The notes: generated from the sequence alone by a model not told the origin. A DNA stretch of 64,000 bases from Nostoc sp. DedSLP01 (GCA_034530875.2 JAVRCJ020000023.1:32001-96000), one strand, 5' to 3'. Positions 15,141-62,902 are shown, counted from the stretch's first letter. Made by a program: numbers and translations.

Positions 15141-16615
<1,475 letters not shown>

Positions 16616-30284: not shown

Positions 30285-30697
30285 TAGTAAAGATATAAAT
30301 TTTGACTTTTGACACTCGCGAACAACATAGTTAGAATGTTGGGCGTTCAGTTATTAAATATACATATATTCAGTTGAAGTCAACAAATACCTGAAGTTTA
30401 TTTGAGCGCTTCTTGTCTATAAAATTTACTGCCAACCTACGGTATATACCAAATTCACGCAAGGCTCAATTTAGCTTTAGTTAAGCAGAGTGAAAGGGAA
30501 AAATCAGCGTTTAAGGTTGGCTTTCGTTCCTTAACCCAATCTAGCAACTGTAAATGATTTATTAAAACCATTTACATATAAATAACCACAGCGATTTTAC
30601 TGAAGTTTTTGCTGAATTATGCTACCTAAATACGGGTATTTTTAAGCATAAAAATTAGCATTCCAATGACTACTAAATCGGGAAATACTGAAATATC

Positions 30698-33600: not shown

Positions 33601-36349
33601 CAGCGTCACTGATTATCAAACTGCACTGCGTTCTGTTACCTATCAAAACACTAGCGATAACCCCAGCACCACCACCCGCACCATTAGCTTTATTGTCAAT
33701 GACGGCAGTTTAAATAGTACCACTGTCACCCGCGATATTAATCTCACCGCAGTCAATGATGCCCCAGTCGTCACTGCGACCAACACCCCCCTGGCGTACA
33801 CCGAAAACGACGCTGCTAAAGCTATAGACCCCGATCTTACGATCGCCGATCTTGACTCCAGTAACCTCACCAGTGCCATAGTCTCTATTATCGGTTTTGT
33901 CGCGGCAGAAGACACACTTGCTTTCACTGACCAAAACGGTATCACTGGCAGTTATAGCAATGGTGTTTTAACCTTAACTGGCAGTGCTACTGTCGCCCAA
34001 TATCAAACTGCACTGCGTTCTGTTACTTATGAAAACAGCAGCGCTAACCCTAGCGCCATTACCCGCACCATCAGCTTTGTTATCAATGACGGCATCTCAG
34101 ATAGTACTGCTGCAACCCGTGACATTGATTTCACCGCAGTTGATAATATCCCAGTCATCACTGCCACCAATATCGCCCTCGACTACACGGAAAATGACGA
34201 TGCTACAATCATCGACTCCGGTATTAACATCGCTGATGTTGATTCCAGCAGCCTTAACAGCGCCATAGTCTCGATTATCGGTTTTGTTGCGGCAGAAGAC
34301 AGCCTCGCTTTCACTGACCAAAACGGTATTACTGGCAGCTATAGCAATGGCGTTTTAACCCTAACTGGCACTGCCAGCATTGCCAACTATCAAACTGCAC
34401 TGCGTTCTGTTACCTACCAAAACAGCAGCGATAATCCCAGCGCCACCACCCGCACCATTAGCTTTGTAGTCAATGATGGTACTTCAGATAGTACTGCTGC
34501 AACCCGCGATATTAATGTAATCCCAGTTAATGATGCGCCAGTCATCACTGCTACTAATACCACCCTCGACTACACGGAAAATGACGATACTACAATCATC
34601 GACTCCGGTATTACGATCGCTGATGTTGACTCTAGCAGCCTTAACAGTGCCACAGTCACCATAAGCAGTGGTTTTGTGGCGGCAGAAGATAGCCTCGCTT
34701 TCACTGACCAAAACGGTATTACTGGCAGCTATAGCAATGGTGTTTTAACCTTAACTGGCACTGCCAGCATCGCTGACTATCAAACTGCACTGCGTTCTGT
34801 CACCTACCAAAACAGCAGCGATAACCCTACCACCACCCGCACCATCAGTTTTGTCGTCAATGACGGCACTTCAGATAGTACCGCTGCAACTCAAGATATT
34901 AATTTAATCCCAGTTAATGATGCCCCAGTCATCACTGCTACTAATACCACCCTCGACTACACGGAAAATGACGAGGCTATAGTCATTGACTCGGATATTA
35001 CGATCGCTGATGTTGACTCTAACAACCTCAGCAGTGCTACAATCAACGTTCTCGATTTTGTTGCGGCAGAAGACACACTTGCTTTCACTGACCAAAACGG
35101 CATTAGTGGTAGCTACGGCAATGGTGTTTTAACTTTAACTGGTAGCGCTACTGTCGCTCAATATCAAACTGCGCTGCGTTCTGTTACCTATCGCAATAAC
35201 AGCAATAAACCTAGCACCCGCAGTATCAACTTTGTAGTCAATGATGGCAGCTTAGATAGTACCGTTGCAACCCGTAACATTAGTTTCAACCCAGTTGATG
35301 AGGAAATACCCAGCCGTCTAACTAACCCCGATGATGATGTCTTCAAAATTAGTGGTGAGGATATCAAAGTCAGACTTGAAATCAAGCTCACTGGACACAC
35401 TAGTAAGCTAATGAATGAACTGGGTTTATTTATTGTTGATGATGCTCAAGGTACGATTAACGGTATTGCTCCTGGTGCTGATGGTTATGCCGCAGCAGCT
35501 TTAGAACGCTCAAAGGTAATTTTCTCTGCGATCGCTAATACTCCTAATGGCTTTGATTCCAATAATCTCACCACTCTGCTGGAATTAACTTCTGGTCAGT
35601 ATTTCCGATTCTTATTATTCAAAGACAGCACTTTTGATGCTGTACGCAACGATCCCAAATCCATCGGCAAATTACTGTTTTCTGATGTCTCAACACAAAA
35701 AATTACAGCTTTGGGTGATGATAATTACTCTGTAGGTTGGAAGGATAGTTTTAATAACGCTGCCACCGATTTTAACGCTCTGGTGGTAAAAATTAAACAG
35801 ATAAATCAACCTTTACCTTTGGGTACAAATCTCCAAAGTAAATCCCAAGGGGAAATGATTGATTTGCGAGATGTTCAACAACCAGTTCTTGCTGAATTTA
35901 GTGTTTATAGAGAGGCAGCTTACAACAATTATGTCGGCTTCTATCAAGTAATTGATGAAAATGGTGGAATTGATACCAATGGCGATGGGGTGGCTGATGT
36001 TCTCACCGGACAGGCTGGTTATACTCAGGCTGCTGTGCGTAGTCGGGTTGGCGGTATTGATTTGGCTGTGAGCGATGGAGGTAGCGCTACTTACAGTGGT
36101 ACTTTGCAACCTGGCGGAATTTTTGTTCCGTTTATTATTGTTGATGGTACTCCTGATGCACTTTTAGATAACGACCGCAATAACGATCCGGCGGTTTATT
36201 TCCCATTCTTGGGTGCTAATTCTGATGGCTCAGATCACATTCGTTTATTAGGAAATAATAGCTTTGGCTTTGAGGATTTGGTTGGCGGTGGCGATCGCGA
36301 TTTCAACGATCTGATTGTTAAAGTTAATTTGACCCAAATTAGCGTTTAG
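30698..36349 (+). CDS. Giant repeat surface protein: DUF4347 + 7 FG-GAP repeats + Calx-beta-like + 7 tandem ~130-aa Ig/cadherin-like repeats + DUF4114-like C-terminus
   Basis: IIAHGSPGSLQLG, IYGCEVA, GGSWELE (DUF4347); seven DFxxDxxxD repeats; seven (A/I)PV(V/I)T..YTEN repeats; GFEDL..GGDRDFNDL C-terminus. Confidence 0.88.
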   Translation: MATTKAIATKQTLVIIDAGIDDRQILELGILPTAKVAVLNKHIDGIDQISALCKNHATASIQIIAHGSPGSLQLGNSQLNLNNLHAYRQQLQQWLPTEILIYGCEVAATETGKTFIETLHQLTGANIAASAGKIGNAEQGGSWELEVKIGQIDSTLALQPEIREAYPKVLASFATASNFTVGTNPISITVEDFNGDGNLDLVTANSTSNNVSVLLGNGTGGFATASNFITGSRPFSVTVEDFNGDGNLDLAVANYNSNTTSVLLGNGTGGFDTATNFTVGTRPTSVTAADFDGDGNVDLAVANRTTNNVSVLLGNGTGDFGTASNFTVGSSPQSVTAADFNGDNNLDLVVVNRTSNKVSVLLGDGTGSFATATNFTVGTSPFEVKVADFNGDGNLDLAVANYSSNNVSVLLGNGAGSFGTATNFSAGSSPRSLVVGDFNSDGNLDLATANRNGNNVSVLLGNGTGGFGTASKFTVGNSPRSITVGDFNGDGKLDLAAANFLNNRVSVLLNTTPKITIASGTNPKEGGPDGSFTITLDTPAPAGGLVVKFNAIGSTATATTDYALVADTNITAVTTNTFIIAQGQTTATLKVTAVFDNVADPNETVIINLESSPDYILGANTTATLTIAEPIAPVVTATSTPLAYTENDAATAIDSGLTVTDADSTNLNSAIVSITSGFVAAEDILGFTAQNGISGSYSNGVLTLTGSATVAQYQTALRSVTYQNTSDNPSTTTRTISFIVNDGSLNSTTVTRDINLTAVNDAPVVTPTSTPLAYTENDAATAIDPDLTIADVDSTNLNGATVSITNGFVAAEDTLAFTDQNGITGSYSNGILTLTGSATIAQYQTALRSITYQNTSDNPSTTTRTISFIVNDGSLNSTTVTRNINLTAVNDAPVVTPTSTPLAYTENEAATAIDSGILITDVDSTNLNGAIISITSGFVAAEDTLAFTAQNGITGSYSNGVLTLTGNASVTDYQTALRSVTYQNTSDNPSTTTRTISFIVNDGSLNSTTVTRDINLTAVNDAPVVTATNTPLAYTENDAAKAIDPDLTIADLDSSNLTSAIVSIIGFVAAEDTLAFTDQNGITGSYSNGVLTLTGSATVAQYQTALRSVTYENSSANPSAITRTISFVINDGISDSTAATRDIDFTAVDNIPVITATNIALDYTENDDATIIDSGINIADVDSSSLNSAIVSIIGFVAAEDSLAFTDQNGITGSYSNGVLTLTGTASIANYQTALRSVTYQNSSDNPSATTRTISFVVNDGTSDSTAATRDINVIPVNDAPVITATNTTLDYTENDDTTIIDSGITIADVDSSSLNSATVTISSGFVAAEDSLAFTDQNGITGSYSNGVLTLTGTASIADYQTALRSVTYQNSSDNPTTTRTISFVVNDGTSDSTAATQDINLIPVNDAPVITATNTTLDYTENDEAIVIDSDITIADVDSNNLSSATINVLDFVAAEDTLAFTDQNGISGSYGNGVLTLTGSATVAQYQTALRSVTYRNNSNKPSTRSINFVVNDGSLDSTVATRNISFNPVDEEIPSRLTNPDDDVFKISGEDIKVRLEIKLTGHTSKLMNELGLFIVDDAQGTINGIAPGADGYAAAALERSKVIFSAIANTPNGFDSNNLTTLLELTSGQYFRFLLFKDSTFDAVRNDPKSIGKLLFSDVSTQKITALGDDNYSVGWKDSFNNAATDFNALVVKIKQINQPLPLGTNLQSKSQGEMIDLRDVQQPVLAEFSVYREAAYNNYVGFYQVIDENGGIDTNGDGVADVLTGQAGYTQAAVRSRVGGIDLAVSDGGSATYSGTLQPGGIFVPFIIVDGTPDALLDNDRNNDPAVYFPFLGANSDGSDHIRLLGNNSFGFEDLVGGGDRDFNDLIVKVNLTQISV
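32590..35290 (+). repeat. Seven tandem ~390-bp intragenic repeats
   Basis: Units start near 32590, 32980, 33370, 33760, 34147, 34535 and 34921; long stretches identical at DNA level. Confidence 0.9.
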
Positions 36350-48091: not shown

Positions 48092-49276
48092 TTATCGATC
48101 TACCGATCCCATCACCACATCAATACTTCCTAGAATGACGAAAATATCTGCTACTTTTTGACCCCGGATTAATTGAGGTAAAACTTGTAAATTATTGAAA
48201 TCGGCCGGGCGAATTTTCCAACGCCAAGGGAAAATGCGATCGTCTCCAATAATATAGATTCCTAATTCTCCTCTACCTGACTCAATACGCACATAGTTTT
48301 CACCCTCAGGAATTTTAAATGTGGGCGAAACTTTTTTGGCAATGAACTGGTAATCAAATCCGTTCCACTCAGATTTAGCACCTGCTGACAGGCGTTTAGC
48401 TTCTAAATTTTCATAAGCACCACCAGGTAATCCCTTCAGTGCTTGCTGAATAATTTTGACTGACTCGCGCATCTCTCCAGTTCTGACAACGTACCTAGCA
48501 AAACAATCTCCTGCTGTATCCCACTGCACTTGCCAGTCAAAATCGTCGTAGCATTCGTAACGGTCAACTTTTCGTAAATCCCACTTCACGCCAGAAGCGC
48601 GTAACATCGGCCCGGAAACTCCCCAGTTAATTGCTTCTTCGCGACTTAAAACTCCTATACCCTCTACTCGACGGCGAAAAATTGGGTTATTAGTAATCAG
48701 TTTTTCATACTCATCAATCTTGGGGACAAAGTAATTACAAAAGTCTTCGCATTTATCCACCCAGCCGTAAGGTAGATCAGCAGCAACTCCACCGATACGA
48801 AAATAATTATTGTTGACCATGCGGTAGCCTGTGGCAGCTTCAAACAAGTCGAGAATCATTTCGCGATCGCGCAAAGTGTAAAATATCGGAGTTTGTGCGC
48901 CAGTATCTCCCACAAAAGGCCCCAACCACAGTAAATGGTTGACAATGCGAGCTAACTCCAACATGATTACCCGAATGTAGCTAGCACGTTTGGGGATGGT
49001 GACGTTTGCCAATTTTTCCACAGCATTCACCGTCACGGCTTCATTAAACATCCCGCCATAGTAGTCCCATCGGCTCACATAAGGGACATACATCACATTG
49101 GTACGGTTTTCGGCAATTTTTTCCATACCCCGGTGTAGGTAGCCGATGACAGGTTCGCAATCAACCACATCTTCACCATCCAAGGTGACAAGAATCCGAA
49201 AGCACCCATGCATCGAAGGGTGATGCGGGCCAAAGTTGATTGTCATTGGCTCGGTTCTGATTTGAATTCTGACCAT
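48092..49276 (-). CDS. ndhH: NAD(P)H-quinone oxidoreductase subunit H (apparently divergent copy)
   Basis: [32 protein letters not shown]-terminal GSVDR; 394 aa. Confidence 0.93.
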
Positions 49277-49396: not shown

Positions 49397-52300
49397 TTAA
49401 AGCAACTGTTGCATCATCAGTTGTGCAAATAGCCCTGGTTGATTTGTTAGTTCGGCGAAACTGCCTTGCTGCACTACTTTGCCACCTGCGAGGACGTAAA
49501 TGCGATCGGCGTTTTGAATGGTACTGAGGCGATGGGCGATCGCAACTCTAGTCACCTTTAGCTTTTGTAAGCTTTCACTGACAATTGCCTGAGTTCTATT
49601 ATCTAAAGCGCTAGTAGCTTCATCAAATAGCAAAATTCTGGGTTTCAATACCAATGCCCTAGCAATCAACAACCGCTGTCGTTGTCCGCCGGACAGATTA
49701 CTACCTCCCTCGCTGACGATTGTATGCATCTGCATCGGCATCGCGGCAATGTCATCCGCCAAACCCGCCATCTGAGCTGCTTCCCAAGCTTCGTCCATTG
49801 TCACCAAGGCACCACTGGCAATATTTTCAAAAATTGAAGCTGACATTAAGCGACTATTTTGCAATACTACGCCTAATTGACGGCGCACAGCATGGACATC
49901 CAAAGAAGCTAAGTCTTGCCCATCGTAGTAAATTGTGCCAGATTTCGGGAATTCAAACCCTAAAAGTAACCTTAATAAAGTTGATTTACCGCTGCCAGAA
50001 GGGCCGACAATGGCAATAAATTCTCCTGGTTGGGCGTGAATGCTGACATTATCCAGCGTCAAGGGGCCATCGTCACGATAGCGGAAAGTTACCCGATCTA
50101 CAACTAATTTGCCCGATAACCTACCCGGATCTGTCTGAGCAGAACTAATTTCTGGTTCAGCTTGTAAAATTGGTTGGGCGCGTTGCCACAAGGGTAAGAC
50201 TTGCAAAACTTCCACAACTGTGCTGCTGAGGCTAGTGGCTCCGTTAATGAAAGTACCAAAAGCAACATTGAATGCTAAAAAAGTGCCAGTGGATAAACCA
50301 CCTCCTCCAGGAGTTTGTTGGGACTGCACAATTAAGCTAGTAGCAAACCAGAACAGGGCAGCAGTGGTGATTGCAGGTAATATTTGATTGATTACTACCA
50401 CGCTATCTTCAATGCCTTGGGTACTCAGCATGAGTTTCAGTTGATGCGTATACTGTTTACCCCAGTAGGCAAAGGCACGGGCTTCAGCTTTGGCAACTCG
50501 GAGTTTGGCAACTCCATTAATTAACTGCACCATGACGCCAAAGATTTGTCCTTGTAGTTCTAGTAATGGGCGAACTTTACGCACAATCAGAACGCCAGAG
50601 ATGATGGTAACGGCAATATTTACCAGTGCTACTACACAAGCTATGAGAGCTAAGGAGACATTGTAGTAAAATAACAATCCTAGATTCAGCAAGGAGAACA
50701 AACTGGAAAAGATTGTTTTTAAAACTGTGTTACCCAGCTTATGGCGAATTTGACTAATAGCTGTGACTCTAGAATCCAAGTCTCCAACTGAGAAAGAGCG
50801 AAAAAAGGAAGCCTTCAAGTTTAACAATCGATCCCAAACTGCCCCTTGGGTAGAGGAATCGGCAAAAGTTTCCAACCTAATGGTGGCAAATCCAAGGGCG
50901 AGTTGAAATAGCGTTCCGCCAAAGGCAGCAGCCACCAAAGCAACAGCAATTTGGCTCAACAACCCTCGATTCGCATCTGGGATAGCTTTGTCGATGAGAA
51001 TAGCTGTAGCTTGAGGTGTCAGCATTCCTAACAGGCTGATGGTAATTCCCATTACTAAAACTAAAATTAGTTCTTTGTAATGTCCTTGGAGGGCAAACTG
51101 GAGTAAATCAAAAGTTCTCAGCTTTTTATCGGGTAAAGGTCGATAGAATGCGTAGGCAGTCTTAACTAGGGCTACTGCTATGTTGGCATCGACAGGGATA
51201 GGCGTTTTTTCACCGGGAACGTAGAGTTGGTAACGCGTGTCAGACACTGGTAATAGTGCCACTGGCAGTTTATCGGCAAGTGTAAATGCTAACATTGCGC
51301 CGCAATCTTTTTGCCACCAGTTGTCCCGCAACTGAACTCGTCGCACGCGGATACGCGAAGCCCTGGCGATCGCTTCTACAGGATCTTGTACTCTTGATAA
51401 ATCTTCTGAGGCAGCTGGCGGACAAATCTTAATTCCTAATGCTCGTCCCACAGCACCAGCAGCCATTAGTAAGCCTTGGTCTGGATCGGTTGCATCAAGA
51501 CTACTACTAAATCCTATATTATTTAGCTTGTTTGACTTTGGCTGTGGCAAGACAGATGCTAATTCTGCTAACGTCTCTTGCATCACTTGGTTCTCAAGAC
51601 GTTCCCTAGCTTGAAATCTGAGCAATTCTGCATCCATTTCCTGCTGTTGCAGTAGATTAACGCACTGGAGGAAGTAGGTTTGTAGTTGCGACAAACCATC
51701 TAACAAAGAATTGATATCTTTGATGTCTGCGGTGTTAATACTTTGCAATTCTACAATGTTATTTGCTTGCAACCACATATTTGCAGCTAAAGGCAACATT
51801 CCACAGGCAGGAGTGAACGGCAGATCGTCAAATCCCATCCATCTAGCACGTCCTTGGAGAATTTGCACCCACGATATTTGCTGCGGCTGGAAGATTTGAC
51901 CTGCGGCTAAGGATAAGTGGCCGATTTCTGGCAGCGATGTTGGTGTTGTTGGCGTAGTAATACCAGCAAGTACCGAACCAAATTGAGAAATCCAGCGTTC
52001 TATCAGAGTTAATACTTCTTGATTAGCGTCAGCAAACAACTGGTTAAAGTCAGTTCTCGATATTTTGAGAATTTCTGTCTCCTCTAGGGATACTGCCAAA
52101 ATCTCTTGCTGCTTGCCGATGTTACTTGGTGCGATCGCAAACATCGCCTGTCCTGGTGTGCTGCTAAATAAATAGCGACGGGTACCTTCGGGAACGCCAT
52201 CATTAACTGCGATCGCAAATAGCGCCAAGTAACCAGATTTCACTAACCAAATTGACTCCGGATCGTCTAGCACTAGCGATTCATTGCATTGAAAACGATA

Positions 52301-54757
52301 GTGTTGTCCTTTAAGGTTTGAGAAGGATAAGAGGGATGAGGGGGATGAGGAAGACAAGGAAGACAAGGGGGACAAGGAAGATAAGTCTTCACTTCTGTCT
52401 TCTGCCTCCTGCCTCCTGCCTTCTGCCTCCTGCCTCCTGCCTCCTGCCTCCTCCCCTGCTTCCTCACTGCGAATTAGTTGTAAGTACGGCCCTTCAACTT
52501 GCCGCAATTGTTGGTGACTTCCTCGTTGAACTATCTTGCCGCGATGGAGGACAATAATTTCATCACAATCTCGGATAGTCGAGAGTCGATGCGCCACGAT
52601 GATGCAAGTGCAACCGCGCAACCGCAGATTACGATTGACGTTCTTTTCTGTTTCGGCATCGAGAGCGCTGGTAGCTTCATCCATAATCAGGATACTGGGA
52701 TTATTCACCAAAGCCCGCGCGATTTCTAAACGTTGCCTTTGACCGCCACTCAAATTAGTAGCACCTTCTAAAAGGTCAGCATGATAGCCTCCAGGCAGTG
52801 AAAGGATGACATCGTGAAGCGCTGCGTCTTGACAGGCTCGGACGAGATGAGTGTCAGGTATGGTAGTATCCCAAAGCGTTAAGTTGTCTCTGACACTGCC
52901 AGCAAATAACAAAATCTCTTGCTCTACAACAGAAATAGAATTGGCTAGTACCTGGCGATAAATTTGCTCTCTGGGTTTGCCGTCGAATAAAATTTCTCCC
53001 TGCCAAGGTTCGTAAAGCCCACATAAAAGTTTGGCAACAGTAGACTTACCAGAACCACTTCCACCCACCAAAGCAACTCGCTGCCCTGGCTTGAGCGTAA
53101 GATTAAAATTTTCAATCAACGGCGGGGCTATTTGACTATAGCCAAATGTCACATTGCGTAATTCAACATAACCCTGGAGTTTGGGCAGAGGATAGGCGGA
53201 TGAGGAAGTGAGGGAGTGAGGGAGAATAATTACTGATTCCTGACTTCCAACTTCTGCCTCCTGCCTTCTGCCTCCTGCCTTCTGCCTCCTGCCTTCTGCC
53301 TCCTGCAACTGCCGGTCAATGGGGTTACGCAAGACATCATCGAGGCGATTTAGATTACCTTCCATTTCTTGGAGTTCGCTTCCCAGGCTGATGAGATTAT
53401 TTACTGGAGCGAAAAATCTTTGCATCATGCCGAGAAAGGCTATTAACATGCCGATGCTCAAGGCTCCATCCATGACTCGCAAACCGCCTACAGCTAAAAG
53501 TAGCATGGAAGCGATCGCTGACAGAAAAGATGGTAAAACACCTATTGTCTGGTTTGTTTCTTCTAATTCTTGCTGGGTATTGATGGCTTTGGCATAGTGA
53601 CCCCCCCACCGGGAGAAGAAATCTGACTCTAAGCCAGATGCTTTTAGTGTCTCCATACTCTGAAGACCAGAAATTTCTACGCCGCGAACTTTTCCCTGTT
53701 CTTGGATGAGTTTGATATTGGCATCTACCCGCCGCCCTCTTACCCACTGCAAGGCGGCAAGGTTGATAATGACAAAGGCGATCGCAATTAAAGTTAGTAC
53801 AACATCATATTGCAACATCACTATTACATATAGAAATATTGATGCTGCGGCAATTACTGTAGTTGCTAACTCACCCGAAAGCATGTCGGCGATGCTGTCG
53901 TTGAGTTGCATTCGGCTACTGATTTCCCCAGCATAACGCTGATCGTAAAAACTAACGGGTAGGCGTAAAATGTGCCACAGATAGCGACTCTTCATGCCCA
54001 CGGACAACTTAATTTTCATTTGACGCAAAAACTGCAACTGTAGCAGCGTCAAAAATCCACTGAGTCCGGCTGTGAAGATAATGCCTAAAATTAGCGGACG
54101 CAACCACTCATAACGACGCTCAATTAATACGTTGTCTACAAATACCTGGGAAAATGCAGGTATTGCCAGCCCAGGAATGACTAACAAAAATCCTGCCAGC
54201 ACGCAGTAAAGTAATGCCCCAAGAGAACCTCGCAACCGCGACCACAAAGCTAAGATTGTGCTGGGCTTGCGTCCTCCGGGTTGAAACTCTGGACTAGGCT
54301 CTAGGACTAGCACTACACCAGTGTAAGCACCGCTGAATTCTTCTAAGGAGACGGTGCGCCGTCCAGTCGCAGGATCGTTAAGATAAACTCGCTGTTTATC
54401 GAATCCCTCTACTACTAAGAAATGGTTAAAGTTCCAAAATACAATATAGGGAGATTTTAACTGTAATAAACCAGTTAAGTTGGTTTTAAAGCTTTTAGCG
54501 GTAAGTCGATAATTTCTCGCAGCCTTCAAGATATTTAAGGCACTAACTCCATCCCGCGAGACACCGCACGCTTGTCTCAATTCCGTCAGTGGGACAATGC
54601 GATTGTAATAACCCAGAATAATTCCCAAAGCGGCAGCACCGCATTCTACTACCTCCATTTGCAGCAGAGTCGGAGTATGACATCGCTTGTTTTTAAGCGT
54701 CGGCTTTGCCCACCGCAAGCATCGCTCTAATATATTTTGCAAATTTCGCCAGAACAT
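49397..54757 (-). CDS. NHLP-type bacteriocin export ABC transporter: fusion of C39-peptidase/permease/ATPase and cNMP-like/permease/ATPase halves
   Basis: QMEVVECGAAAL, HFLVV and NDPA (C39); two Walker A motifs (GGSGSGKS, GPSGSGKS) and two LSGGQRQR signatures in one 1786-aa ORF. Confidence 0.9.
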   Translation of the reverse strand: MFWRNLQNILERCLRWAKPTLKNKRCHTPTLLQMEVVECGAAALGIILGYYNRIVPLTELRQACGVSRDGVSALNILKAARNYRLTAKSFKTNLTGLLQLKSPYIVFWNFNHFLVVEGFDKQRVYLNDPATGRRTVSLEEFSGAYTGVVLVLEPSPEFQPGGRKPSTILALWSRLRGSLGALLYCVLAGFLLVIPGLAIPAFSQVFVDNVLIERRYEWLRPLILGIIFTAGLSGFLTLLQLQFLRQMKIKLSVGMKSRYLWHILRLPVSFYDQRYAGEISSRMQLNDSIADMLSGELATTVIAAASIFLYVIVMLQYDVVLTLIAIAFVIINLAALQWVRGRRVDANIKLIQEQGKVRGVEISGLQSMETLKASGLESDFFSRWGGHYAKAINTQQELEETNQTIGVLPSFLSAIASMLLLAVGGLRVMDGALSIGMLIAFLGMMQRFFAPVNNLISLGSELQEMEGNLNRLDDVLRNPIDRQLQEAEGRRQKAGGRRQEAEVGSQESVIILPHSLTSSSAYPLPKLQGYVELRNVTFGYSQIAPPLIENFNLTLKPGQRVALVGGSGSGKSTVAKLLCGLYEPWQGEILFDGKPREQIYRQVLANSISVVEQEILLFAGSVRDNLTLWDTTIPDTHLVRACQDAALHDVILSLPGGYHADLLEGATNLSGGQRQRLEIARALVNNPSILIMDEATSALDAETEKNVNRNLRLRGCTCIIVAHRLSTIRDCDEIIVLHRGKIVQRGSHQQLRQVEGPYLQLIRSEEAGEEAGGRRQEAEGRRQEAEDRSEDLSSLSPLSSLSSSSPSSLLSFSNLKGQHYRFQCNESLVLDDPESIWLVKSGYLALFAIAVNDGVPEGTRRYLFSSTPGQAMFAIAPSNIGKQQEILAVSLEETEILKISRTDFNQLFADANQEVLTLIERWISQFGSVLAGITTPTTPTSLPEIGHLSLAAGQIFQPQQISWVQILQGRARWMGFDDLPFTPACGMLPLAANMWLQANNIVELQSINTADIKDINSLLDGLSQLQTYFLQCVNLLQQQEMDAELLRFQARERLENQVMQETLAELASVLPQPKSNKLNNIGFSSSLDATDPDQGLLMAAGAVGRALGIKICPPAASEDLSRVQDPVEAIARASRIRVRRVQLRDNWWQKDCGAMLAFTLADKLPVALLPVSDTRYQLYVPGEKTPIPVDANIAVALVKTAYAFYRPLPDKKLRTFDLLQFALQGHYKELILVLVMGITISLLGMLTPQATAILIDKAIPDANRGLLSQIAVALVAAAFGGTLFQLALGFATIRLETFADSSTQGAVWDRLLNLKASFFRSFSVGDLDSRVTAISQIRHKLGNTVLKTIFSSLFSLLNLGLLFYYNVSLALIACVVALVNIAVTIISGVLIVRKVRPLLELQGQIFGVMVQLINGVAKLRVAKAEARAFAYWGKQYTHQLKLMLSTQGIEDSVVVINQILPAITTAALFWFATSLIVQSQQTPGGGGLSTGTFLAFNVAFGTFINGATSLSSTVVEVLQVLPLWQRAQPILQAEPEISSAQTDPGRLSGKLVVDRVTFRYRDDGPLTLDNVSIHAQPGEFIAIVGPSGSGKSTLLRLLLGFEFPKSGTIYYDGQDLASLDVHAVRRQLGVVLQNSRLMSASIFENIASGALVTMDEAWEAAQMAGLADDIAAMPMQMHTIVSEGGSNLSGGQRQRLLIARALVLKPRILLFDEATSALDNRTQAIVSESLQKLKVTRVAIAHRLSTIQNADRIYVLAGGKVVQQGSFAELTNQPGLFAQLMMQQLL

Positions 54758-54940
54758 AAAAATATTTTTTAAATAAGGAGTCAGTTGTCAGGAGGCAGGA
54801 GGCAGAAGGCAGAAGGCAGAAGGCAGGAGGCAGAAGTTAAGACTTATCTTCCTTGTCCCCTGCCTCCGCTGCCTCTCCTGCCTCCCCTGCTTCCCCTGCT
54901 CCCCCTGCCTCCCCTACCCCCTGCTCTCTCATCTCCAGTA

Positions 54941-56383
54941 TCAAGAAACACCGCTCCAGGATCTCAGAATTGGTAGAACAAAGGTAATCGGGGCGCGTTC
55001 TTCCACGGTGACTTGTACGGAGGTGGTAGTTCCAGAAGTGACCTTCATCTGTGGCCCTTGGGAAGAAGACCATTTGTACTCGCTGAAGGTGGAATTGTCT
55101 GGTTGCAGTCGTGCAGTAATTAGCATCTGTGGTCCTTGTGACATAATGGCTTCTACAAATTCAGAATTGCCGACTACACTTAATGCACCTTCTTTAGTCA
55201 CGGGAAAGGCTGAGACTTCTGTGACGGCACCGATGATGCCACCAAAGCGTTCGCGTTGGACTGTAGTAGGCGTGACTTGTAACTTCATCCCCGGTTGAAT
55301 TTGCTTACCATCGCCAACGGGAAAAAATGCCACACTGACAGGTTGAGCAGATCGCTGTTGTGCAGCGATCGTTCCTATGGGTGTACCCTGTAAAACAATC
55401 TGCCCTGGTGTGGCGGAAATTTCTAAAACTCGTCCGGAGTAATTGCTTTTGACTAAGCTGCTACTCGATAGTTGCAGTGCTAATTGAGCAATATTCCGCT
55501 GAGCTTCCTGAATTTCTTTTCTGCGATTAGTTACGGCATCTAAGTCTTGTTGTGCCGCAGCAGCTTGTTTGCTATCTAGTTGTTTTAACTGCGCTTGCAA
55601 ATCTTTAATTGCGTTCAAGTTCTCTAGGTATTGGCGTTGAGCATCTGCTTCTTTGACATCCAGTTGCTTGAGTTGGGATTCGGCTTCATTGATTTGTGTC
55701 ACGGCATTTAAGTAGTCTTGCTGTGACTGTAGGACTGAATCGCCAGAAATTGCTCCCTCTTGCAATAGTTTATTGCGGTTGTCCCATCTTTGTTTGAAGG
55801 TAGGCAACAGTTGTCGTAGTGCTTGTAAGCTTTGAGTTTGGTTGGCGCGATCGCGAGCAATCGAGTCTAGCCCTTTTTCTCTTAAAATCGGTGTTAGCTT
55901 CTGTACTGCCTGGAGATTTTGCAGCAAAGATTGGCGTTGCTGTTTAATGGCTTCTTTGTCTGCGTTTTGCCGTTGTAGTTGCACTAAGTTAGCAGCGCGA
56001 TCTTGTGCTTGTAGTTGTTGTAATTTAGAGCGTACTAGTTGTAGCTGTTTCAACAGTTCGCTTTGGTCTAGCGTCGCCAGCACATCTCCTCTATTTACAT
56101 AGTCACCAACTCGGACGTTGATTGTTCGCAATTTACCTGCGATCGGTGACTGAAACAAGGTAACTGTACTGGGATAAACTATTATCCCAGTACCCGTTAC
56201 TGTAATTGGAATTCGACCTAAAAAACTCCAAGTCAGCCCCGTCGCCACCAAAGAACCAACAGCGACTAGAGGTAGCCACTTTTTCGGGCTGACTACCTGC
56301 ATGATTTGATCTAGTTCTTCAGGTGAAGAAGCACGCTCTAAAGCTTCTTTGCGGAACAGGTCGCTCTTTTGCCTAACCACCAA
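54941..56383 (-). CDS. NHLP bacteriocin system secretion protein (HlyD membrane-fusion family)
   Basis: FRKEALERASSPEELDQIMQVV, TM segment, coiled coil, RERFGGIIG, YKWSSSQGP, PITFVLP. Confidence 0.92.
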   Translation of the reverse strand: MVVRQKSDLFRKEALERASSPEELDQIMQVVSPKKWLPLVAVGSLVATGLTWSFLGRIPITVTGTGIIVYPSTVTLFQSPIAGKLRTINVRVGDYVNRGDVLATLDQSELLKQLQLVRSKLQQLQAQDRAANLVQLQRQNADKEAIKQQRQSLLQNLQAVQKLTPILREKGLDSIARDRANQTQSLQALRQLLPTFKQRWDNRNKLLQEGAISGDSVLQSQQDYLNAVTQINEAESQLKQLDVKEADAQRQYLENLNAIKDLQAQLKQLDSKQAAAAQQDLDAVTNRRKEIQEAQRNIAQLALQLSSSSLVKSNYSGRVLEISATPGQIVLQGTPIGTIAAQQRSAQPVSVAFFPVGDGKQIQPGMKLQVTPTTVQRERFGGIIGAVTEVSAFPVTKEGALSVVGNSEFVEAIMSQGPQMLITARLQPDNSTFSEYKWSSSQGPQMKVTSGTTTSVQVTVEERAPITFVLPILRSWSGVS

Positions 56384-56925
56384 ACACCGTCCCCATTTCT
56401 ATGGGAATAAAAACATAAAATACCTTTGAGTGAATACAATACTGTTGCTGCGATCGCTAGGAGTTGCAGTCTAAATGGAAAATAGGCAATACAATTGTTT
56501 GCTTATTTGACAGTATTAATATTCACAGATAGAAATTATTTTAATCATATCATTTGATGAAAAAACGAGAAATTTATAAATTAATTTTTTTAATTATTTG
56601 ATTTTTTATAGACATGAATTAAAGTTCTGAGTCAAGACCTCTTTCCTCAGAACTTTAAGACAAATCAAAATTTTTACAGCATTTATAAAATAGTCTAATG
56701 ATTTAGGAAAAATACTTTTCCACTTAAATAATCAATCCTTTACACCCTATATCGAATAGAGTTGACATAACTTAGAGTCAGTCTAATTATAAACTAAACC
56801 TAGCTAATGAATTTGGTTAATGTGAATTTCGCCATATTGATGACAATACTAACTTTTAAAACCAAAGTCAATACTAAATTTAAAGCCTAAAACTCTTTAA
56901 AAATAAACACATATAGCTGATGTCT

Positions 56926-56961
56926 AAAAGTAAGAAAAGTAGGAAAAGTAAGAAAAGTAAG
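56926..56961. repeat. Four tandem AAAAGTA(A/G)G 9-mers
   Basis: Direct reading; second array at 58941-58980. Confidence 0.85.
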
Positions 56962-57250
56962 AATTCCTAATTATCACTAAGGTATGCAACAAATTCCACA
57001 GCACTTATCAGATTTGTGTTTGAGTGATGCGATCGCACCACTTAATCGAGTCTCTAGCACTCATACTTGATTTGATGAAAAAAACTCAGTACACTTTTAT
57101 TACTTTTTACTTGTTAAGAGTTCCCTATGTCTACAACTAGTTCTCCGAATTAAACCGGATTTCTATAGCCCTTTATCTTTTAAAATCGGTGTCAGCTTCT
57201 GTACTGCCTAGAAGTTCTAAGTAGGTCAGTGTGAATATTTATCGTTACAC

Positions 57251-57425
57251 CTAGTGGCGTGGCAAGCTTTAAATGTTGCAAAGAAATTATAGGTTGGGGA
57301 AACCCCAAATTGAGCAAGTAGCATTTGACGTAAGAAAACTCAACGCTACGCTAATATATTTGTTGGATTTCACGTTGCTCAGCCCAACTTTCTAATGCAT
57401 TATTCTAGTCTTGTCGCGCCACTAG
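57251..57425. mobile_element. MITE-like element (175 bp)
   Basis: TIR CTAGTGGCGTGGCAAG / CTTGTCGCGCCACTAG (14/16 match). Confidence 0.6.
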
Positions 57426-57575
57426 TAGAAAAAAAAGTTTACAAAACTCGTAAAAAGTCACTTAACCGCCAGCGTTGCTTTCCATAGCAATTCGGAATCA
57501 TTCGTGAGAAAAGATCATTATTTTACAAGTATTCAAGCCTGGATTAATTCTCACGTATCATTTAGGACTACTATA

Positions 57576-57830
57576 TTATTTGTCCTTTGTTGAGATATCA
57601 ACCACAATTTTATTGTCAATCTTTACGTTTATGACAATACTATCGCAAGGTAGTTGTCCTAATGGGGAATTTGGTTGGGCTGGTGGGGCTGATGGGACTG
57701 GTGGTTCCCATTTTATTGGTAGCCACTTTAATGGTTGCCAACCATTTCCTCCAACGAGGGTAAACGTTTTTTCTTCATCTAACTCTGTAATAACTGCAAC
57801 CTCTTCTCGTTCAAAAGTGATGTTGGACAT
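57576..57830 (-). CDS. Double-glycine-leader secreted peptide 1
   Basis: Leader ..ITELDEEKTFTLVGG|; GGAAGGA RBS; upstream of the C39 transporter on the same strand. Confidence 0.75.
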   Translation of the reverse strand: MSNITFEREEVAVITELDEEKTFTLVGGNGWQPLKWLPIKWEPPVPSAPPAQPNSPLGQLPCDSIVINVKIDNKIVVDISTKDK

Positions 57831-58345
57831 AACAAATCCTTCCGTCTACAAAATGACTCTGGTCTGGTGAAATTCTTTTAGTCACTTAACCAAAAATTAC
57901 AGTAAGTTCCGTTAATATAACTATTCTGTAATCTTTATAAGAAAATATTGACGGGTAGGTAAGAAGTAAGAGATAATAATTACTGGTCGCTTACCTTTGA
58001 CCTTTAATCGTTATCCAGCTTACACCCGCCAATATTCACGTAATATTGTCGTGAGTTGTGATGCCAGAAATAGTCAGACCACTATGTTATAAGATGTCAC
58101 TACACTTATTCGTAAAGGTCGTCTCTAGTCCTTTGTCAGTTGTTGGTAGCAATTGGCAAAGGACTACTGGTTTATAAGGGTCTTAACGAAATAACGTGTA
58201 AGTTTCATACTTATTAGCTTAGTGTTGTCGTGATTTGTAGCGATAATACAAATCATGATAAAGAAATTTTTGGCAATACAAACAAACGGTTAAAGTGACT
58301 TTTGTTGAGGTGATAACTCAATTCAGAGCGTACTAGACAGACACA

Positions 58346-58630
58346 TTACCAACCAATGTACGCGCGGTCTCTACTGCTATCAGAGTAGTTTGAAGCATAA
58401 GCATTTCCACCAACTGCTACTGCGGTAGATGTTTGATTGGTTACATTAATGTCATTTTTGCCGCCTTTGACACTTCCGATCTTAACGTCATTGTCGTTTT
58501 TGACATCGATATCTATTTTTTTGGCATAAAAAGAGTAGTCTGCGCCACCACCTACAACTCCACTGATTTCTTCATCAGCTAACTCTGTCATTACTACGAG
58601 GGTTTCTTTCTCAAGTGTTACAACTGACAT
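58346..58630 (-). CDS. Double-glycine-leader secreted peptide 2
   Basis: Leader ..MTELADEEISGVVGG|; leader paralogous to peptide 1. Confidence 0.82.
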   Translation of the reverse strand: MSVVTLEKETLVVMTELADEEISGVVGGGADYSFYAKKIDIDVKNDNDVKIGSVKGGKNDINVTNQTSTAVAVGGNAYASNYSDSSRDRAYIGW

Positions 58631-59585
58631 AAGATTATTTCCTTCTACAAAATGATATTTGCATAGTGCAATTCTTTCTTTGACTTAACCAACAACTGTA
58701 GATAACAAAAGAACTTTTATACTTGAAAAATAGTATTTACTGTTTTTTTGTTAATATCTTTAGATATTCTTAAATGAATATATCTAAAGATGAATTTTGT
58801 TGGTTGCATCGTTGAATTCACTATATTTATAGAATACAACTATTTAAAAAAAACTATATAAAGAAATGATGAAGTTAATAACAAATTTTTTTAAAGATTA
58901 ATTTTTTTAAGCGATTAAAATTCGATAAAATTTAGTATAAAAAAGTAAGAAAAGTAAAAAGTAAAAGTAAGAAAAGTATGAATATTTAAAATAATATTTC
59001 CATCATTTAAATATCAAGAATATTGTAAACAGCAAATATAAAAATATTTTTTAATAAATTAAATATATATATTAAAGTATATTTAATAAATTTAAAATAT
59101 TTAATAGCATTTACTAATAAATAATTGCTGCAATGCTTATTCAACAGGGATTACAAAAAAATAAAATAATAAATATTATCGGAATTAAATAGAATTGCTA
59201 TGTAAAAACATATAGCTAATATCAAAATTTAAAATTATATTTTTAAATAGTAATTCTCTCAAGTTTTAAAAGCCATTTACAGTAGTATGTCTATTGTTTT
59301 TCATAAAAATGATAGCTCTAAATTATTTATAAATAATAAGATTTTCAACCGATACGTATCAGTCGAAAATCTTAGTATTATCTAGTTTAAAAACTTATAT
59401 TTTACATACTATTTAGTTAAAAAATACTGCAAATTATAGTTAGAAAAATAAAATTTACTACTAGAGAAATAGACTTCACGTGACTTATACTCAAACTCAC
59501 TCGAAGTAGTACTAACGCCAAAGTCGGAACGTAAAAATTAAAACAAAATGTGCGATTAATCGTGTCTAGTACTTAATGAGTTATT

Positions 59586-59808
59586 GGAGGATGTTTGCAA
59601 AGTATCAGACGAATATAATCCGTCACTACACAAGCGTAGACACGTTAGCAGGTTATTGATTCCTCGAAAAGGGTTTTCACAGGATGGAGTACGCTAACAA
59701 AAAAGCAAAGTTTTTAAACGGTACAAACAGGTTTGGTTTACGTGTAAAATGAACCGCAATTTATATTCGCCAAAACTAATGATAAATTAGATTTCACAAA
59801 CATCCTCC
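59586..59808. mobile_element. MITE-like element (223 bp)
   Basis: Perfect 12-bp TIR GGAGGATGTTTG / CAAACATCCTCC. Confidence 0.6.
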
Positions 59809-59874
59809 TTAATCGCACTTCTACAACCTACCCACACCTACATATCCTTATCTGCTTGCTTTAGCTGTATGTAG

Positions 59875-60162
59875 CTAGGAAGCCTGAACAACTCCATTCA
59901 CAAACTTCAAGATATTTGTTGTTGCCTCTGTTACTCCATTCACAGTTTTATTTGTCTTTGTTGTGACTGTTCTTTGATTTCCAGTCTGTTTGTCTTCAAT
60001 GGATTGCTCAATGATAATTTGAGTTGCATTGTCTACATTTGAAGCTGAATAAGATATTGTTTCACCACCAACTATTCCTTTCAATTCGCCATCTCTTAGC
60101 TCCTCGATAATAACTTTTTGTTTATGGTTAGATTTGAAGCTAACTCGATTGATATTAGCCAT
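59875..60162 (-). CDS. Double-glycine-leader secreted peptide 3
   Basis: Leader ..IIEELRDGELKGIVGG|; ATG 60162 with GGAGGA RBS. Confidence 0.8.
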   Translation of the reverse strand: MANINRVSFKSNHKQKVIIEELRDGELKGIVGGETISYSASNVDNATQIIIEQSIEDKQTGNQRTVTTKTNKTVNGVTEATTNILKFVNGVVQAS

Positions 60163-60841
60163 AATTTCCTCCAAAAATGTGTACACAATTTGCGTTTTAC
60201 ATGTCTTTACAAATAACAGTTTTTTTAATAGCTTGTCAACAGTTAATACAAAATATCGTACCTTTCAAACTTAACTTACTTTTCCTAAATTTATTGTTTC
60301 CATTTTTATTTTTTTTAAATAATTGGTATTCACCAATTATAAACAAACAATATTTTTATACTTAAAAAACTTAAATACTTTGTGTTTTACCATTATTTAA
60401 TATTAGCAAAAACTATATAATTGTTTGTTAGCTACTTGCAGAGCTACTGCTAATATGAGCAAAACTACAAATTTTAATTGGGATATTGAACCTCTTAGGT
60501 TTCAAATCTTTAATTTCAATTTAAACTTTATACTTATAGCACCGATAAAAGTCAGAAGTCAGAATATTCCGACCTCTGACTAATGTATTAAACAGATAAT
60601 GAGGAATGCATAACTGGCGTTATACAAGGGATTGAGCGATAACTAAGACGAAATTATAGCAATTTTTTGGTTCAATCAACTTTTATAAAAATACTAGTTT
60701 ATCGAGGCTAATATTTTTATATTGGTTGGTTTACTGCTTAATTTTCAAGAATTATCTTGAATTGCTTTATGATGTTAGTTAGCTCAATCCACCTTATATT
60801 TTATAAATTACGCTTTGCTTGTGGATTAGGCAAATCAATTA

Positions 60842-61036
60842 CTATTGAATAGACCCAATACCTGTTAATAATTCATCGAGAGCATCGGTAGCTCTTACAA
60901 GAAAAGTACCCAATCCTCTACCTAGCAAGCCTAATATCCCTATTCCTCCGACTACTGCTTCTAATTCTTCCTCATTAATTTCTTCCACAATAACTTCTTG
61001 ATTGATGGATTGTGCCAAGTTTTCATCGTTAACCAT
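60842..61036 (-). CDS. Double-glycine-leader peptide 4 (class II bacteriocin-like core)
   Basis: Leader ..VEEINEEELEAVVGG|, core IGILGLLGRGLGTFLVRATDALDELLTGIGSIQ; ATG 61036 with GGAGA RBS. Confidence 0.82.
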   Translation of the reverse strand: MVNDENLAQSINQEVIVEEINEEELEAVVGGIGILGLLGRGLGTFLVRATDALDELLTGIGSIQ

Positions 61037-61532
61037 GATTTTCTCCAAAAAATTTGTTGTTAGGTGTTTATACCCTTGATGTAATTAGAAATAACAGTTT
61101 GATTAATAGCTTGTCAATAGTTTATACAAAACAACTTACTTTTATGGCTTAACCCACTTTTATTGCTTTTCCTATTTTTTAGAATCTCACTTTTATTACT
61201 TTTATTAATAACATTTTCGCGATTTCCAAAAGTTAAAAAACTTTTAAATATCCTACTTTAGTAGGATGTCTTATACCAAATTTTGCTTATCTGGTTGATA
61301 TGCTTGGAGTTTTTCTATGAGACGGTAAATCCATAGATAAGCTTTGTAGAAGTTACTTGCATAGTCCATATAAAAAGAAATATAGCTTATATCAAAAGGC
61401 TGATTTATGAAGTTTAATCATCAATTCATATCATTTCCTTTAATAAGGATATAAATACGTTAATAGGCGCACAGCTAGCTGTGCACCCTTACCAAATGTT
61501 GATATTTAACTGAGTTTGCGTGAGTTTATATC

Positions 61533-61694
61533 AGGACTTACGCACTCAGATCCCCCAACCCCCTTAAAAAGGAGAGCCACTGTGCCCTTGCGGGTTCCCC
61601 GACTTGTAGCAAGTGGCGTGGCTTTAGAGGTTCCCCTCAATTTATCAGGGGGTAGTGGGGGGATCTATCTTTCAGGCTTCAGTGCGTAAGTCCT
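61533..61694. mobile_element. MITE-like element (162 bp)
   Basis: Perfect 14-bp TIR AGGACTTACGCACT / AGTGCGTAAGTCCT. Confidence 0.7.
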
Positions 61695-61711
61695 ATATAT
61701 TAGGTTGTTTG

Positions 61712-62048
61712 ACGTCTTATCCCACAGACTTAACTGATATGGAGCCAGGATTTCCGGCTCCCTTGATTCCACCAGCTAAAGAAGGAGGATATCCACGCAA
61801 CAATATGCGAGAAGTATGCAATGCAATCTACTATCACTTGAAAATAGGATATGCTTTCAGGCGATTTCCCACTCCTCTTAACGGTATAGAGCTATTACAG
61901 AAAATGGCAATGCAAGGAAGTGTAGGAAAAATTAAACCATACACTGTGTAGTCAAGCTCGCTATTTCACTAGCTAAATCAACACAAACAAGTACGTTAGA
62001 AAAGCTCACCGCAGATACTCAGTCAGTAAAAACGCTTGAAAAAAGGAG
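61712..62048 (+). pseudogene. Degraded IS5-family transposase fragment
   Basis: SYPTDLTD..PLIPPAKEGG.PR..MREVCNAIYY, and later DTQSVKT in another frame; frameshifted and truncated. Confidence 0.75.
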
Positions 62049-62213
62049 CCACTGCGTTCGATCGCAGACTTGTTCGCTGTTGAGAGCCATATATGCTACA
62101 TCGTCTTGTATCCTAAAGAATTACTTTATAAATAATCTCTAAGAGTTCCCTATTCGCTTGAGATCGAAATATGATGTCCTAACCAATATGTCCGTTGCTA
62201 TAAATTTTGTATT

Positions 62214-62340
62214 TACAGCAGATTGAAAGTAAGTGAGAACAGGACTGATTCATCAAAGATAAAGAGTTTCTTTCTAACTCCTACCTCCTCCGGCCTCAAA
62301 ACCCGTAATTTTATACTTCATGTAAATGAAAACTGCTGTA
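62214..62340. mobile_element. Short MITE-like element
   Basis: TIR TACAGCAG / CTGCTGTA; related degenerate element at about 63271-63368. Confidence 0.4.
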
Positions 62341-62494
62341 AATATAAGAAAAGTAGAGACACTACCATTGCATCTCTACAGACTTACTCATTAAAATTTT
62401 TACATGAAATTACACCCAGGAAAAAGTAAAACTATTTTGAATTTAAGATTGTACAAATTAATTTGAAAATCTAAAATTCAGTGATTTTTTTTAA

Positions 62495-62902
62495 TTAAAC
62501 TATTCCTGAACCTTTACCGCGTCGGTCATCGTTTTCTCTCAATTCACCTTCTCGATCCTCGTTAATTTCTTCGAGTTCTTCAACGCGTTCTGCGGTATCT
62601 TCTACTGTTTCTTGGCGTGCATCACCTGGTTCTTCGTAGTACATTTCAGGTTCTACTGCATAGTTATTTAACAAACCTTCTCTGTCTACGGTGTAACCAT
62701 CAGTGGTACGTATACTTTCCGGATCGGTTTGGTCATCGGTAGCCGAATTTGCTTCTCTTTCTTCTGTGGGACGTGTTTTAAATTTATCTCCTTCTCTTTC
62801 TCTGCGAGCAGCTGTTTCAGCGGGAATAATACCGCGATCGTAGGTATCTACTTCTGCGCGCTCGTGTGAATCTATACCTTTTTTAACTGATTCATTAGTC
62901 AT
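62495..62902 (-). CDS. Acidic hydrophilic hypothetical protein
   Basis: 135-aa ORF, GAGGA RBS, DRGIIPAETAAR and DGYTVDREGLLNNYAVEPEMY motifs. Confidence 0.75.
   Translation of the reverse strand: MTNESVKKGIDSHERAEVDTYDRGIIPAETAARREREGDKFKTRPTEEREANSATDDQTDPESIRTTDGYTVDREGLLNNYAVEPEMYYEEPGDARQETVEDTAERVEELEEINEDREGELRENDDRRGKGSGIV

Follow-up and report, generated by a model that had tools for sequence, protein, structure and literature searches.

A Nostoc cassette of four double-glycine-leader peptides and a fused group VII exporter: a possible system for secretion of small unmodified proteins

Introduction

The fusion of a C39 peptidase ATP-binding cassette (ABC) transporter with a peptidase-less ABC transporter was described by Wang, Fewer and Sivonen in 2011 as the group VII cluster, a derivative of the group V cassette with its three genes; Table S3 of that work assigns seven precursors to group VII (one from Cyanothece and six from Trichodesmium, two of the seven annotated as PilT-like and DNA-polymerase-beta-like) and lists none for the Nostoc cluster (PMC3140520). 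A later survey gives the group VII fusion in none of the 13 subsection V genomes that it counts (PMC4558948). Here we analyze a stretch of 64,000 nucleotides from the genome of Nostoc sp. DedSLP01, hereafter called the window, in which four small open reading frames (ORFs) with double-glycine (GG) leaders, named p1 to p4, lie upstream of hlyD and of an exporter gene of this fused kind, all on the minus strand.

Two further lines of work bear on such a locus. In Synechococcus elongatus the GG motifs of EbfG1-4 and the C39 Cys of the transporter PteB are required for export and biofilm (PMC4997328), EbfG2 forms fibrils and amyloid-prone EbfG members occur in the biofilm matrix (PMC9981879), and the same idea of structural export has been proposed for GG clusters of Anabaena (PMC12267927). 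For NHLP-type cassettes, Haft (2010) argued that leader conservation mirrors the transporter more than the tailoring enzymes (PMC2887384). Genes of the cyanobacterial tandem bacteriocin (CTB) family are transcribed in Nodularia (PMC9846622).

Results

Four peptide genes upstream of the exporter

Counted from the first letter of the window, p4 occupies 60842-61036 (64 amino acids (aa), with a 31-aa leader and a 33-aa core; supported by a leader model and by homologs), p3 59875-60162 (95 aa from an ATG with a ribosome-binding site (RBS), or 103 aa from an upstream GTG start; 33-aa leader), p2 58346-58630 (94 aa, 28-aa leader) and p1 57576-57830 (84 aa, with a 28-aa leader paralogous to that of p2). 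They are followed by the gene of an HlyD-type adaptor at 54941-56383 (480 aa; TIGR03794, 394 bits against a cut-off of 156) and by the exporter gene at 49397-54757. A purine-rich, RBS-like stretch stands ahead of each of the four ATGs. An earlier reading of this DNA, made without database searches (the sequence-only reading), had proposed this layout and it was borne out, as were the shortness of the leaders, which at 28, 28, 33 and 31 aa for p1 to p4 match neither TIGR03793 nor TIGR03798 (NHLP/Nif11), and the scarcity of Cys in the cores (1, 0, 0 and 0 residues). Its leader motif, EL/EI-x7-VGG, was one residue short of the actual EL/EI-x8-VGG.

Across the source genome (G000, 99.8% complete) the pattern E[LI]x7[VIL]xG[GA] is present in 14 of 8491 free-standing small ORFs against a shuffled mean of 4.2 (standard deviation 2.2, maximum 9, 50 shuffles), and four of these 14 fall among the 10 small ORFs of the cassette's 4.7 kb, so that both the placement of p1-p4 and their leader motif are beyond chance. 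The four ORFs are genuine genes.

The peptides had been called four unrelated proteins; this holds for the cores, which are mutually unrelated, and fails for what precedes them. The DNA upstream and the N-terminal stretch of the leader are shared by p1 with p2 and by p3 with p4 (four tests, with 0 of 1000 shuffles reaching the score in each), whereas the remaining pairings among p1-p4 stayed at chance level. Two duplications are therefore likely, followed by replacement or fast change of the cores. The DNA upstream of p3 (60165-60270, minus strand) and its homolog upstream of p4 (about 61040-61145) both contain TTGACA and are likely to be a duplicated promoter; the promoter scan as a whole returned 27 sites against 26.7 expected, which is chance, and single sites count as leads. 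Homology between the p2 and p3 cores is suggested by a shared G.DA.V.Q.S.Q.I-like stretch and was not accepted, the hhalign probability being 2.6%, though none of 60 shuffles scored as high.

The exporter is a single-chain group VII protein

Within one ORF of 1786 aa, TIGR03796 (aa 27-763, 1449.8 bits) and TIGR03797 (aa 1094-1785, 1363.4 bits) both pass their curated cut-offs and, with TIGR03794 in the adaptor, the whole NHLP export trio passes here. The order along the chain is C39 peptidase, transmembrane domain and nucleotide-binding domain, then a repeat-derived linker and a region weakly resembling a cyclic nucleotide-binding domain (E 0.019, below cut-off), then a second transmembrane and nucleotide-binding domain. 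The protein is not a plain C39-ABC transporter but a fusion of both NHLP-type ABC subunits, which corrects the sequence-only reading. With the fusion in one ORF and hlyD adjoining, it is a group VII exporter.

All 18 full fusions checked have the C39 Cys, His and Asp, two Walker A motifs, two signature motifs and two H-loops, and a second Walker B was caught by pattern in 12 of the 18, the window protein included. A frame of at least 1500 aa holding the middle domain of the exporter was found in 20 of the 127 genomes that form our genus comparison set. In a quick tree of 52 sequences, built on the first ABC half only, a single clade with support 99 takes in 21 fused proteins and a split one, L111; its sister group is either the exporters of CTB arrays or another clade. 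Two linkers, at 52325-52464 and 53201-53306, consist of tandem repeats of 7 to 9 nucleotides that vary in length between genomes and keep the frame, which suggests selection on the fusion; in L111 the gene is split at the linker repeat. TolC-family genes of G000 (two full matches and a weak one) all lie away from the cassette. Shorter fused exporters of 1520 and 1533 aa, lacking the cyclic nucleotide-binding-like region and adjoined by glycosyltransferase genes, were seen at loci L038 and L039 (G015 and G035), with no GG peptide within the stretch fetched for either.

Conservation of the cassette

A match to the p2 profile was obtained in 16 of the 127 genus genomes, in all 16 upstream of a member of the fused-exporter clade (in G111 the block is divided over two contig ends). 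p2 proper is present in 14 of the 16, in one to three tandem copies, and with it p3 in 14 of 14, p4 in 13 of 14 (G007, locus L033, has lost p4 and kept the rest) and the optional p1 in 5 of 14. The order p4-p3-p2(x1-3)-[p1]-hlyD-exporter recurs in these 14 genomes and in one sister genus, where locus L121 has the full order including p1 and carries four copies of p2. Flanking genes vary, placing the cassette at several chromosomal sites, and no peptide was found away from this exporter in the 16 genomes examined. G071 and G077 have only a different p1-like gene beside the exporter. A lone gene with a p1-type leader and another, Asn/Val/Leu-rich core stands beside the same exporter clade at L111:10900-11193 and L112:10605-10898.

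Homologs number 49 for p2, 33 for p3 and 37 for p4, from sources named Nostoc, Calothrix, Aulosira and Brasilonema. The p2 profile gave 11 matches, none of them named, among 1.84 billion representatives, and among 401 genomes of the order it matched G000, G495 and, weakly, G296; in the last, locus L115 (G296:C19) holds tandem GG-ending small proteins of another family whose cores are weakly p2-like (E 2.4e-5). Pfam contains no family matching p1-p4 and NCBIfam gave weak leader-type matches only; no published description of the four peptide families was found in a literature search that left subscription journals largely uncovered. The ratio of nonsynonymous to synonymous substitution rates (dN/dS), calculated for p1, p2 and p3, is 0.16-0.24 in the leaders, which are under purifying selection. 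Elsewhere in G000, more arrays of small ORFs with GG leaders lie beside other C39 transporters (C40:33086-34484 and C71:4071-5788).

Composition and predicted structure of the cores

Cys is absent from 61 of 63 cores, and the net charge of the p2-p4 cores is near neutral (-2 to +4). The 66-residue core of p2 is rich in Gly, Val, Asn, Lys, Asp and Ser, contains neither Leu nor Pro and alternates in the manner of a beta strand (polar/apolar alternation, p=0.006 and 0.036, uncorrected; 12 uncorrected tests were run on the window peptides). That of p1 is Pro/Trp-rich and then passes into a beta-alternating stretch resembling p2. p3 is Thr/Ser/Ile/Val-rich, Ser and Thr making up 28% across p3 cores; its AlphaFold2 model is a beta-meander with a block predicted local distance difference test (pLDDT) score of 76-82 over residues 51-90, which had no match in the Protein Data Bank at E 0.001 or better. 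The p4 core is Gly/Leu-rich and hydrophobic, of the amphipathic-helix type, with a net charge of -1.

When four p2 cores were modelled together the score was 0.43, against 0.00 for the best of three controls and a mark of 0.42. In its calibration, on two copies, 20 of the 30 solved pairs reached this mark, as did 1 of the 23 single chains; for four copies it is only a rough guide. The best contacts of the model join residue i to residue i over 31-92; three runs scored 0.58, 0.38 and 0.43, with contact agreement of at least 94% and partner pLDDT of at least 65. Pairing of residue i on residue i is the geometry of a parallel in-register amyloid. The model supports, and does not show, self-association of the p2 core.

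A structured non-coding element

An element recognized by conservation and folding, to which no strand is assigned, lies at 57901-58341, between p2 and p1/hlyD. It is 83-92% identical between genomes and single-copy in each; within the genus its presence coincides exactly with that of p2 proper (14 genomes), and L121 has it too. At 13 loci it diverges from the window by 6-17%, against 14-35% for four-fold sites of hlyD. Both strands fold better than shuffles (z -7.5 on plus, -4.1 on minus). A hairpin of 19 bp (58126-58166) keeps 100% of its pairs on the plus (antisense) strand in 13 distinct copies, full pairing being kept only on this strand; covariation is weak, with three positions varying on one side and none on both. 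In a second long stem, near p1, the pairs are better kept on the minus strand. A promoter-like plus-strand site at 57948-57977 (10 of 12 positions) is largely conserved and is a candidate only. No Rfam match up to E 1 was found across 56300-62500, and a model of the hairpin region scored at least 119 bits only in the same 14 genomes, with weak matches of at most 47 bits in another 13 genomes and also in three of those 14. A hidden peptide gene was considered and rejected, there being no ORF kept in all 15 aligned copies, which carry single-base indels. This structured non-coding element, found only with the cassette, is new; possible roles are an antisense RNA or a stabilizing or attenuating mRNA structure.

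Tailoring enzymes

The sequence-only reading had the window free of modification enzymes. This stands for YcaO, LanM and prenyltransferases, none of which was found among the 33 window ORFs scanned, and fails for radical-SAM proteins, ThiC being encoded at 15242-16615. The window also encodes an S8 peptidase at 16700-18688 and, at 27099-30284, a GT41 glycosyltransferase; like ThiC, both are at least 19 kb from the cassette. Around the conserved loci there are 75 flanking ORFs of at least 200 aa; after apparent repeats of the same neighbor had been dropped by eye, 43 were scanned and no LanM, YcaO or radical-SAM gene was found among them. A GNAT gene lies near one locus (L031) and a gene of the asparagine-synthase family near another (L110).

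The genome search proposed earlier for enzymes acting in trans did return matches in G000, namely one LanM, two YcaO and four SPASM, and those examined have precursors of their own. LanM adjoins a Cys-rich precursor; the YcaO of contig 23 has its own unfused NHLP-type exporter on the same contig outside the window (G000:C23:14939-29941) and four Nif11-like precursors whose cores are very short (about 10-12 aa after GG); and a Nif11 precursor adjoins the radical-SAM gene of contig 16. A pair on contig 4 flanks a 207-aa ORF, which we read as its precursor, the gene of contig 13 presumably resembles PqqE, to judge by its context, and one further gene lies on contig 20. Proteusin-type epimerization of p1-p4 was rejected because no PoyD-type enzyme was found in G000 and none passed the cut-off in the sample's four other cassette genomes, in a search where 4 of 61 genomes do score above it; no TIGR04064 enzyme exceeded its cut-off either. 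A linked tailoring enzyme and a Cys-bearing core, the features that mark a precursor of RiPPs (peptides made on the ribosome and modified after translation), do not come together in the cassette. With 61 of 63 cores lacking Cys, composition excludes lanthionine and thiazole for the Cys-free cores.

Other genes of the window

The exporter gene is immediately followed, in the same orientation, by ndhH (48092-49276), and a second ndhH, 81% identical, is on contig C17. Just upstream of p4, 61655-61951 resembles the N-terminus of an IS4/IS5 transposase (DUF4096, E 1e-5, below cut-off). At 27099-36349 the GT41 enzyme, a DUF4915-TPR-GT41 protein, is divergent from the gene of a 1883-aa DUF4347/FG-GAP protein, the pair being likely to represent a glycosylated giant exoprotein and its enzyme. 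The 649-aa ORF at 7158-9107 has no Pfam match.

Discussion

Proposed function

Type I export of unmodified proteins, as put forward in the sequence-only reading, is the best-supported account of the cassette, because the C39 triad is intact, the leaders are under purifying selection, the cores are Cys-free and no tailoring gene is conserved, the tailoring enzymes examined elsewhere sitting in clusters of their own. We regard cleaved export without ring-forming modification as quite probable. Given such export, a role in the matrix is slightly favored. That the cassette as a whole is a set of self-assembling surface or matrix proteins, exported unmodified after cleavage, we put forward tentatively, as a proposal a little short of evenly balanced.

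Under this proposal each peptide gene would be transcribed and the leader would dock on the single C39 domain, which by analogy with its family would cut after GG, at residue 28 in p1 and p2, 33 in p3 and 31 in p4. One polypeptide would supply both halves of a heterodimeric transporter and its single active peptidase, and the core would leave unmodified through the fused transporter, HlyD and a TolC encoded elsewhere. Outside the cell p2, whose copy number varies, is predicted to polymerize as the bulk subunit in parallel in-register beta stacks; more speculatively, p1 and p3 might be minor or nucleating partners and p4 a membrane-inserting anchor. The fullest version is a fixed-order, four-subunit functional-amyloid system of heterocyst-forming cyanobacteria, with p2 as dosage-amplified major subunit, p1 and p3 as minor subunits, p4 as anchor, one P-glycoprotein-like single-chain peptidase transporter and an undescribed antisense RNA that sets the ratio of cargo to exporter; taken in all its parts this is unlikely.

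A number of observations weigh against the matrix proposal. The four-copy score of p2 barely reaches the mark of 0.42, one run fell to 0.38, four copies are beyond the calibration and there was no control with shuffled cores; the p2 monomer is poorly modelled (pLDDT 52), such predictors may stack many beta-rich peptides, and a literature search turned up no calibration of in-register predictions. p3 lacks beta alternation (p=0.78) and has a significant helical moment (p=0.006). Core dN/dS is 0.40 for p1, 1.15 for p2 (180 non-independent pairs with paralogs mixed) and 0.55 for p3, and fast core change together with a patchy range also fits conflict systems. The fused exporter occurs without a p2 or p3 match in 5 of 20 exporter genomes (G005, G012, G020, G032 and G061; searches run without a positive control), with the long frame kept. 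G000 has 13 C39 matches, so another exporter could carry the peptides. p4 resembles a class II bacteriocin, some of its homologs being so named by their sources, and in a comparable microcin system the immunity ORF was at first overlooked (PMC13188072).

Alternative explanations

The main rival is an unmodified multi-component bacteriocin, possibly surface-held and contact-dependent like Caulobacter CdzCD, in which p4 would permeabilize membranes and aggregates of p2 and p3 would display it, an arrangement compatible with a matrix role. It gains from the p4 cores, in which Gly makes up 20% and Leu 22% and whose helical moment exceeds that of shuffles, from a pass of p4 against the leader model TIGR01847 (16.5 against 15.7 bits), from the quickly diverging cores under conserved leaders, and from the precedents of CdzCD (PMC5380434) and MccAB1 (PMC13188072), where aggregation and killing coexist. 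However, the net charge of the p4 cores runs from -2 to 0, neutral to acidic, the bacteriocin names given to p4 homologs probably rest on the leader, and G007 has dispensed with p4 and retained the other members. Among 63 small ORFs of at least 25 aa none stood out as a conserved immunity-type ORF, a test that a divergent tiny ORF could escape; the extra small ORFs that recur either overlap the four genes or fall within non-coding DNA that is conserved. We consider this rival fairly unlikely.

The peptides could instead be RiPP precursors modified in trans by distant enzymes, with YcaO-made oxazolines or dehydration on the Ser/Thr-rich p3, epimerization, glycosylation or acylation. NHLP-type exporters usually accompany modified precursors (PMC2887384), a stand-alone LanM seems to serve distant group V exporters (PMC3140520), and the LanM, YcaO and SPASM matches of G000, the 28% Ser and Thr of the p3 cores and the GNAT and asparagine-synthase-family neighbors could be fitted to the same scheme. 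It is rendered improbable by the near absence of Cys, by leaders of neither the TIGR03793 nor the TIGR03798 type, by the precursors that the examined enzymes already have beside them, by the lack of PoyD-type and TIGR04064 enzymes above cut-off, and by the restriction of the GNAT and asparagine-synthase genes to one locus each.

GG-peptide pheromones exported by C39 transporters exist, and structures of ComA are available; a conserved leader before a variable core would suit strain-specific signalling or kin-recognition peptides acting in density sensing or in hormogonium or colony control. The neighborhood of the cassette has no conserved sensor kinase or regulator, and cores of 33-66 aa in up to four tandem copies point rather to bulk production, so that signalling is a doubtful candidate of low probability.

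That the main cargo of the exporter lies elsewhere, the adjoining peptides being optional passengers or leaving through another C39 transporter, could draw on the five exporter genomes without peptides and, in G000, on the 13 C39 matches and the 10 other small ORFs with the GG motif, and is of low probability given peptides that never occurred apart from this exporter in the genomes examined and that keep its orientation and a fixed order at several chromosomal sites.

Significance

The sequence-only reading had called the system probably undescribed. The exporter (PMC3140520), the strategy of exporting small GG proteins through a C39 transporter, as in EbfG1-4/PteB (PMC4997328), and CTB arrays are already known; what is new comprises the four unnamed cargo families in fixed order, their link to group VII exporters, the amyloid prediction for p2 and the non-coding element. 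Group VII exporters, described in 2011 with no listed Nostoc cargo, thereby acquire a concrete and conserved candidate substrate set, which adds to the evidence that many cyanobacterial 'bacteriocin' clusters may be structural-protein secretion systems. If p2 forms fibers it would be a candidate protein scaffold of Nostoc colonies or biofilms, and an exporter made of one chain, with a single active peptidase, lends itself to studying how asymmetric peptidase transporters work.

Comparison with known systems

The CTB family (NF038167; PF28158, 'cyanobacterial tandem bacteriocin') resembles the cassette in having short-leader GG proteins encoded in tandem upstream of an NHLP-type exporter, and differs in its acidic cores (net -3 to -6) and unfused exporter. 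In six sister loci that we fetched, CTB-type arrays adjoin unfused exporters and no tailoring enzyme is apparent. Membership of the window peptides in this family was rejected, none reaching the 32-bit cut-off of NF038167: the best p4 ortholog scored 15.3 bits against 49-64 bits for the sister-locus peptides, and 2 of 40 p2 members gave weak matches (best E 0.016). Core homology was likewise rejected in profile-profile comparison, where 29 of 60 shuffles scored as high for p2 and 60 of 60 for p3. In the ESM Atlas the clusters nearest to p2 and p3 are CTB (0.85-0.89), a lead only, and a CTB search of G000, run without a positive control, was empty.

With the three-gene NHLP cassette (Haft 2010, PMC2887384) the locus shares all of TIGR03794, TIGR03796 and TIGR03797; unlike that cassette, it has two of the three genes fused, no NHLP/Nif11 leader, and no cyclodehydratase or LanM adjoining. 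CdzCD (PMC5380434) and MccAB1 (PMC13188072) are small, aggregating proteins exported by type I systems, the probable route here as well, and p4 is similar to them in its Gly-rich hydrophobic composition; immunity genes and killing are established there, whereas the present peptides are known from their sequence. EbfG1-4/PteB likewise comprises four proteins with GG leaders, comparable in size and encoded next to a C39 transporter and HlyD (PMC4997328), with a single C39-ABC protein in place of the fused NHLP-type heterodimer, and the likeness is one of gene layout, read here from DNA alone. Group VII itself (PMC3140520) has the same direct fusion of a short C39-ABC with a peptidase-less ABC transporter beside hlyD; what sets the window cassette apart is that its exporter comes with a conserved and ordered set of cargo.

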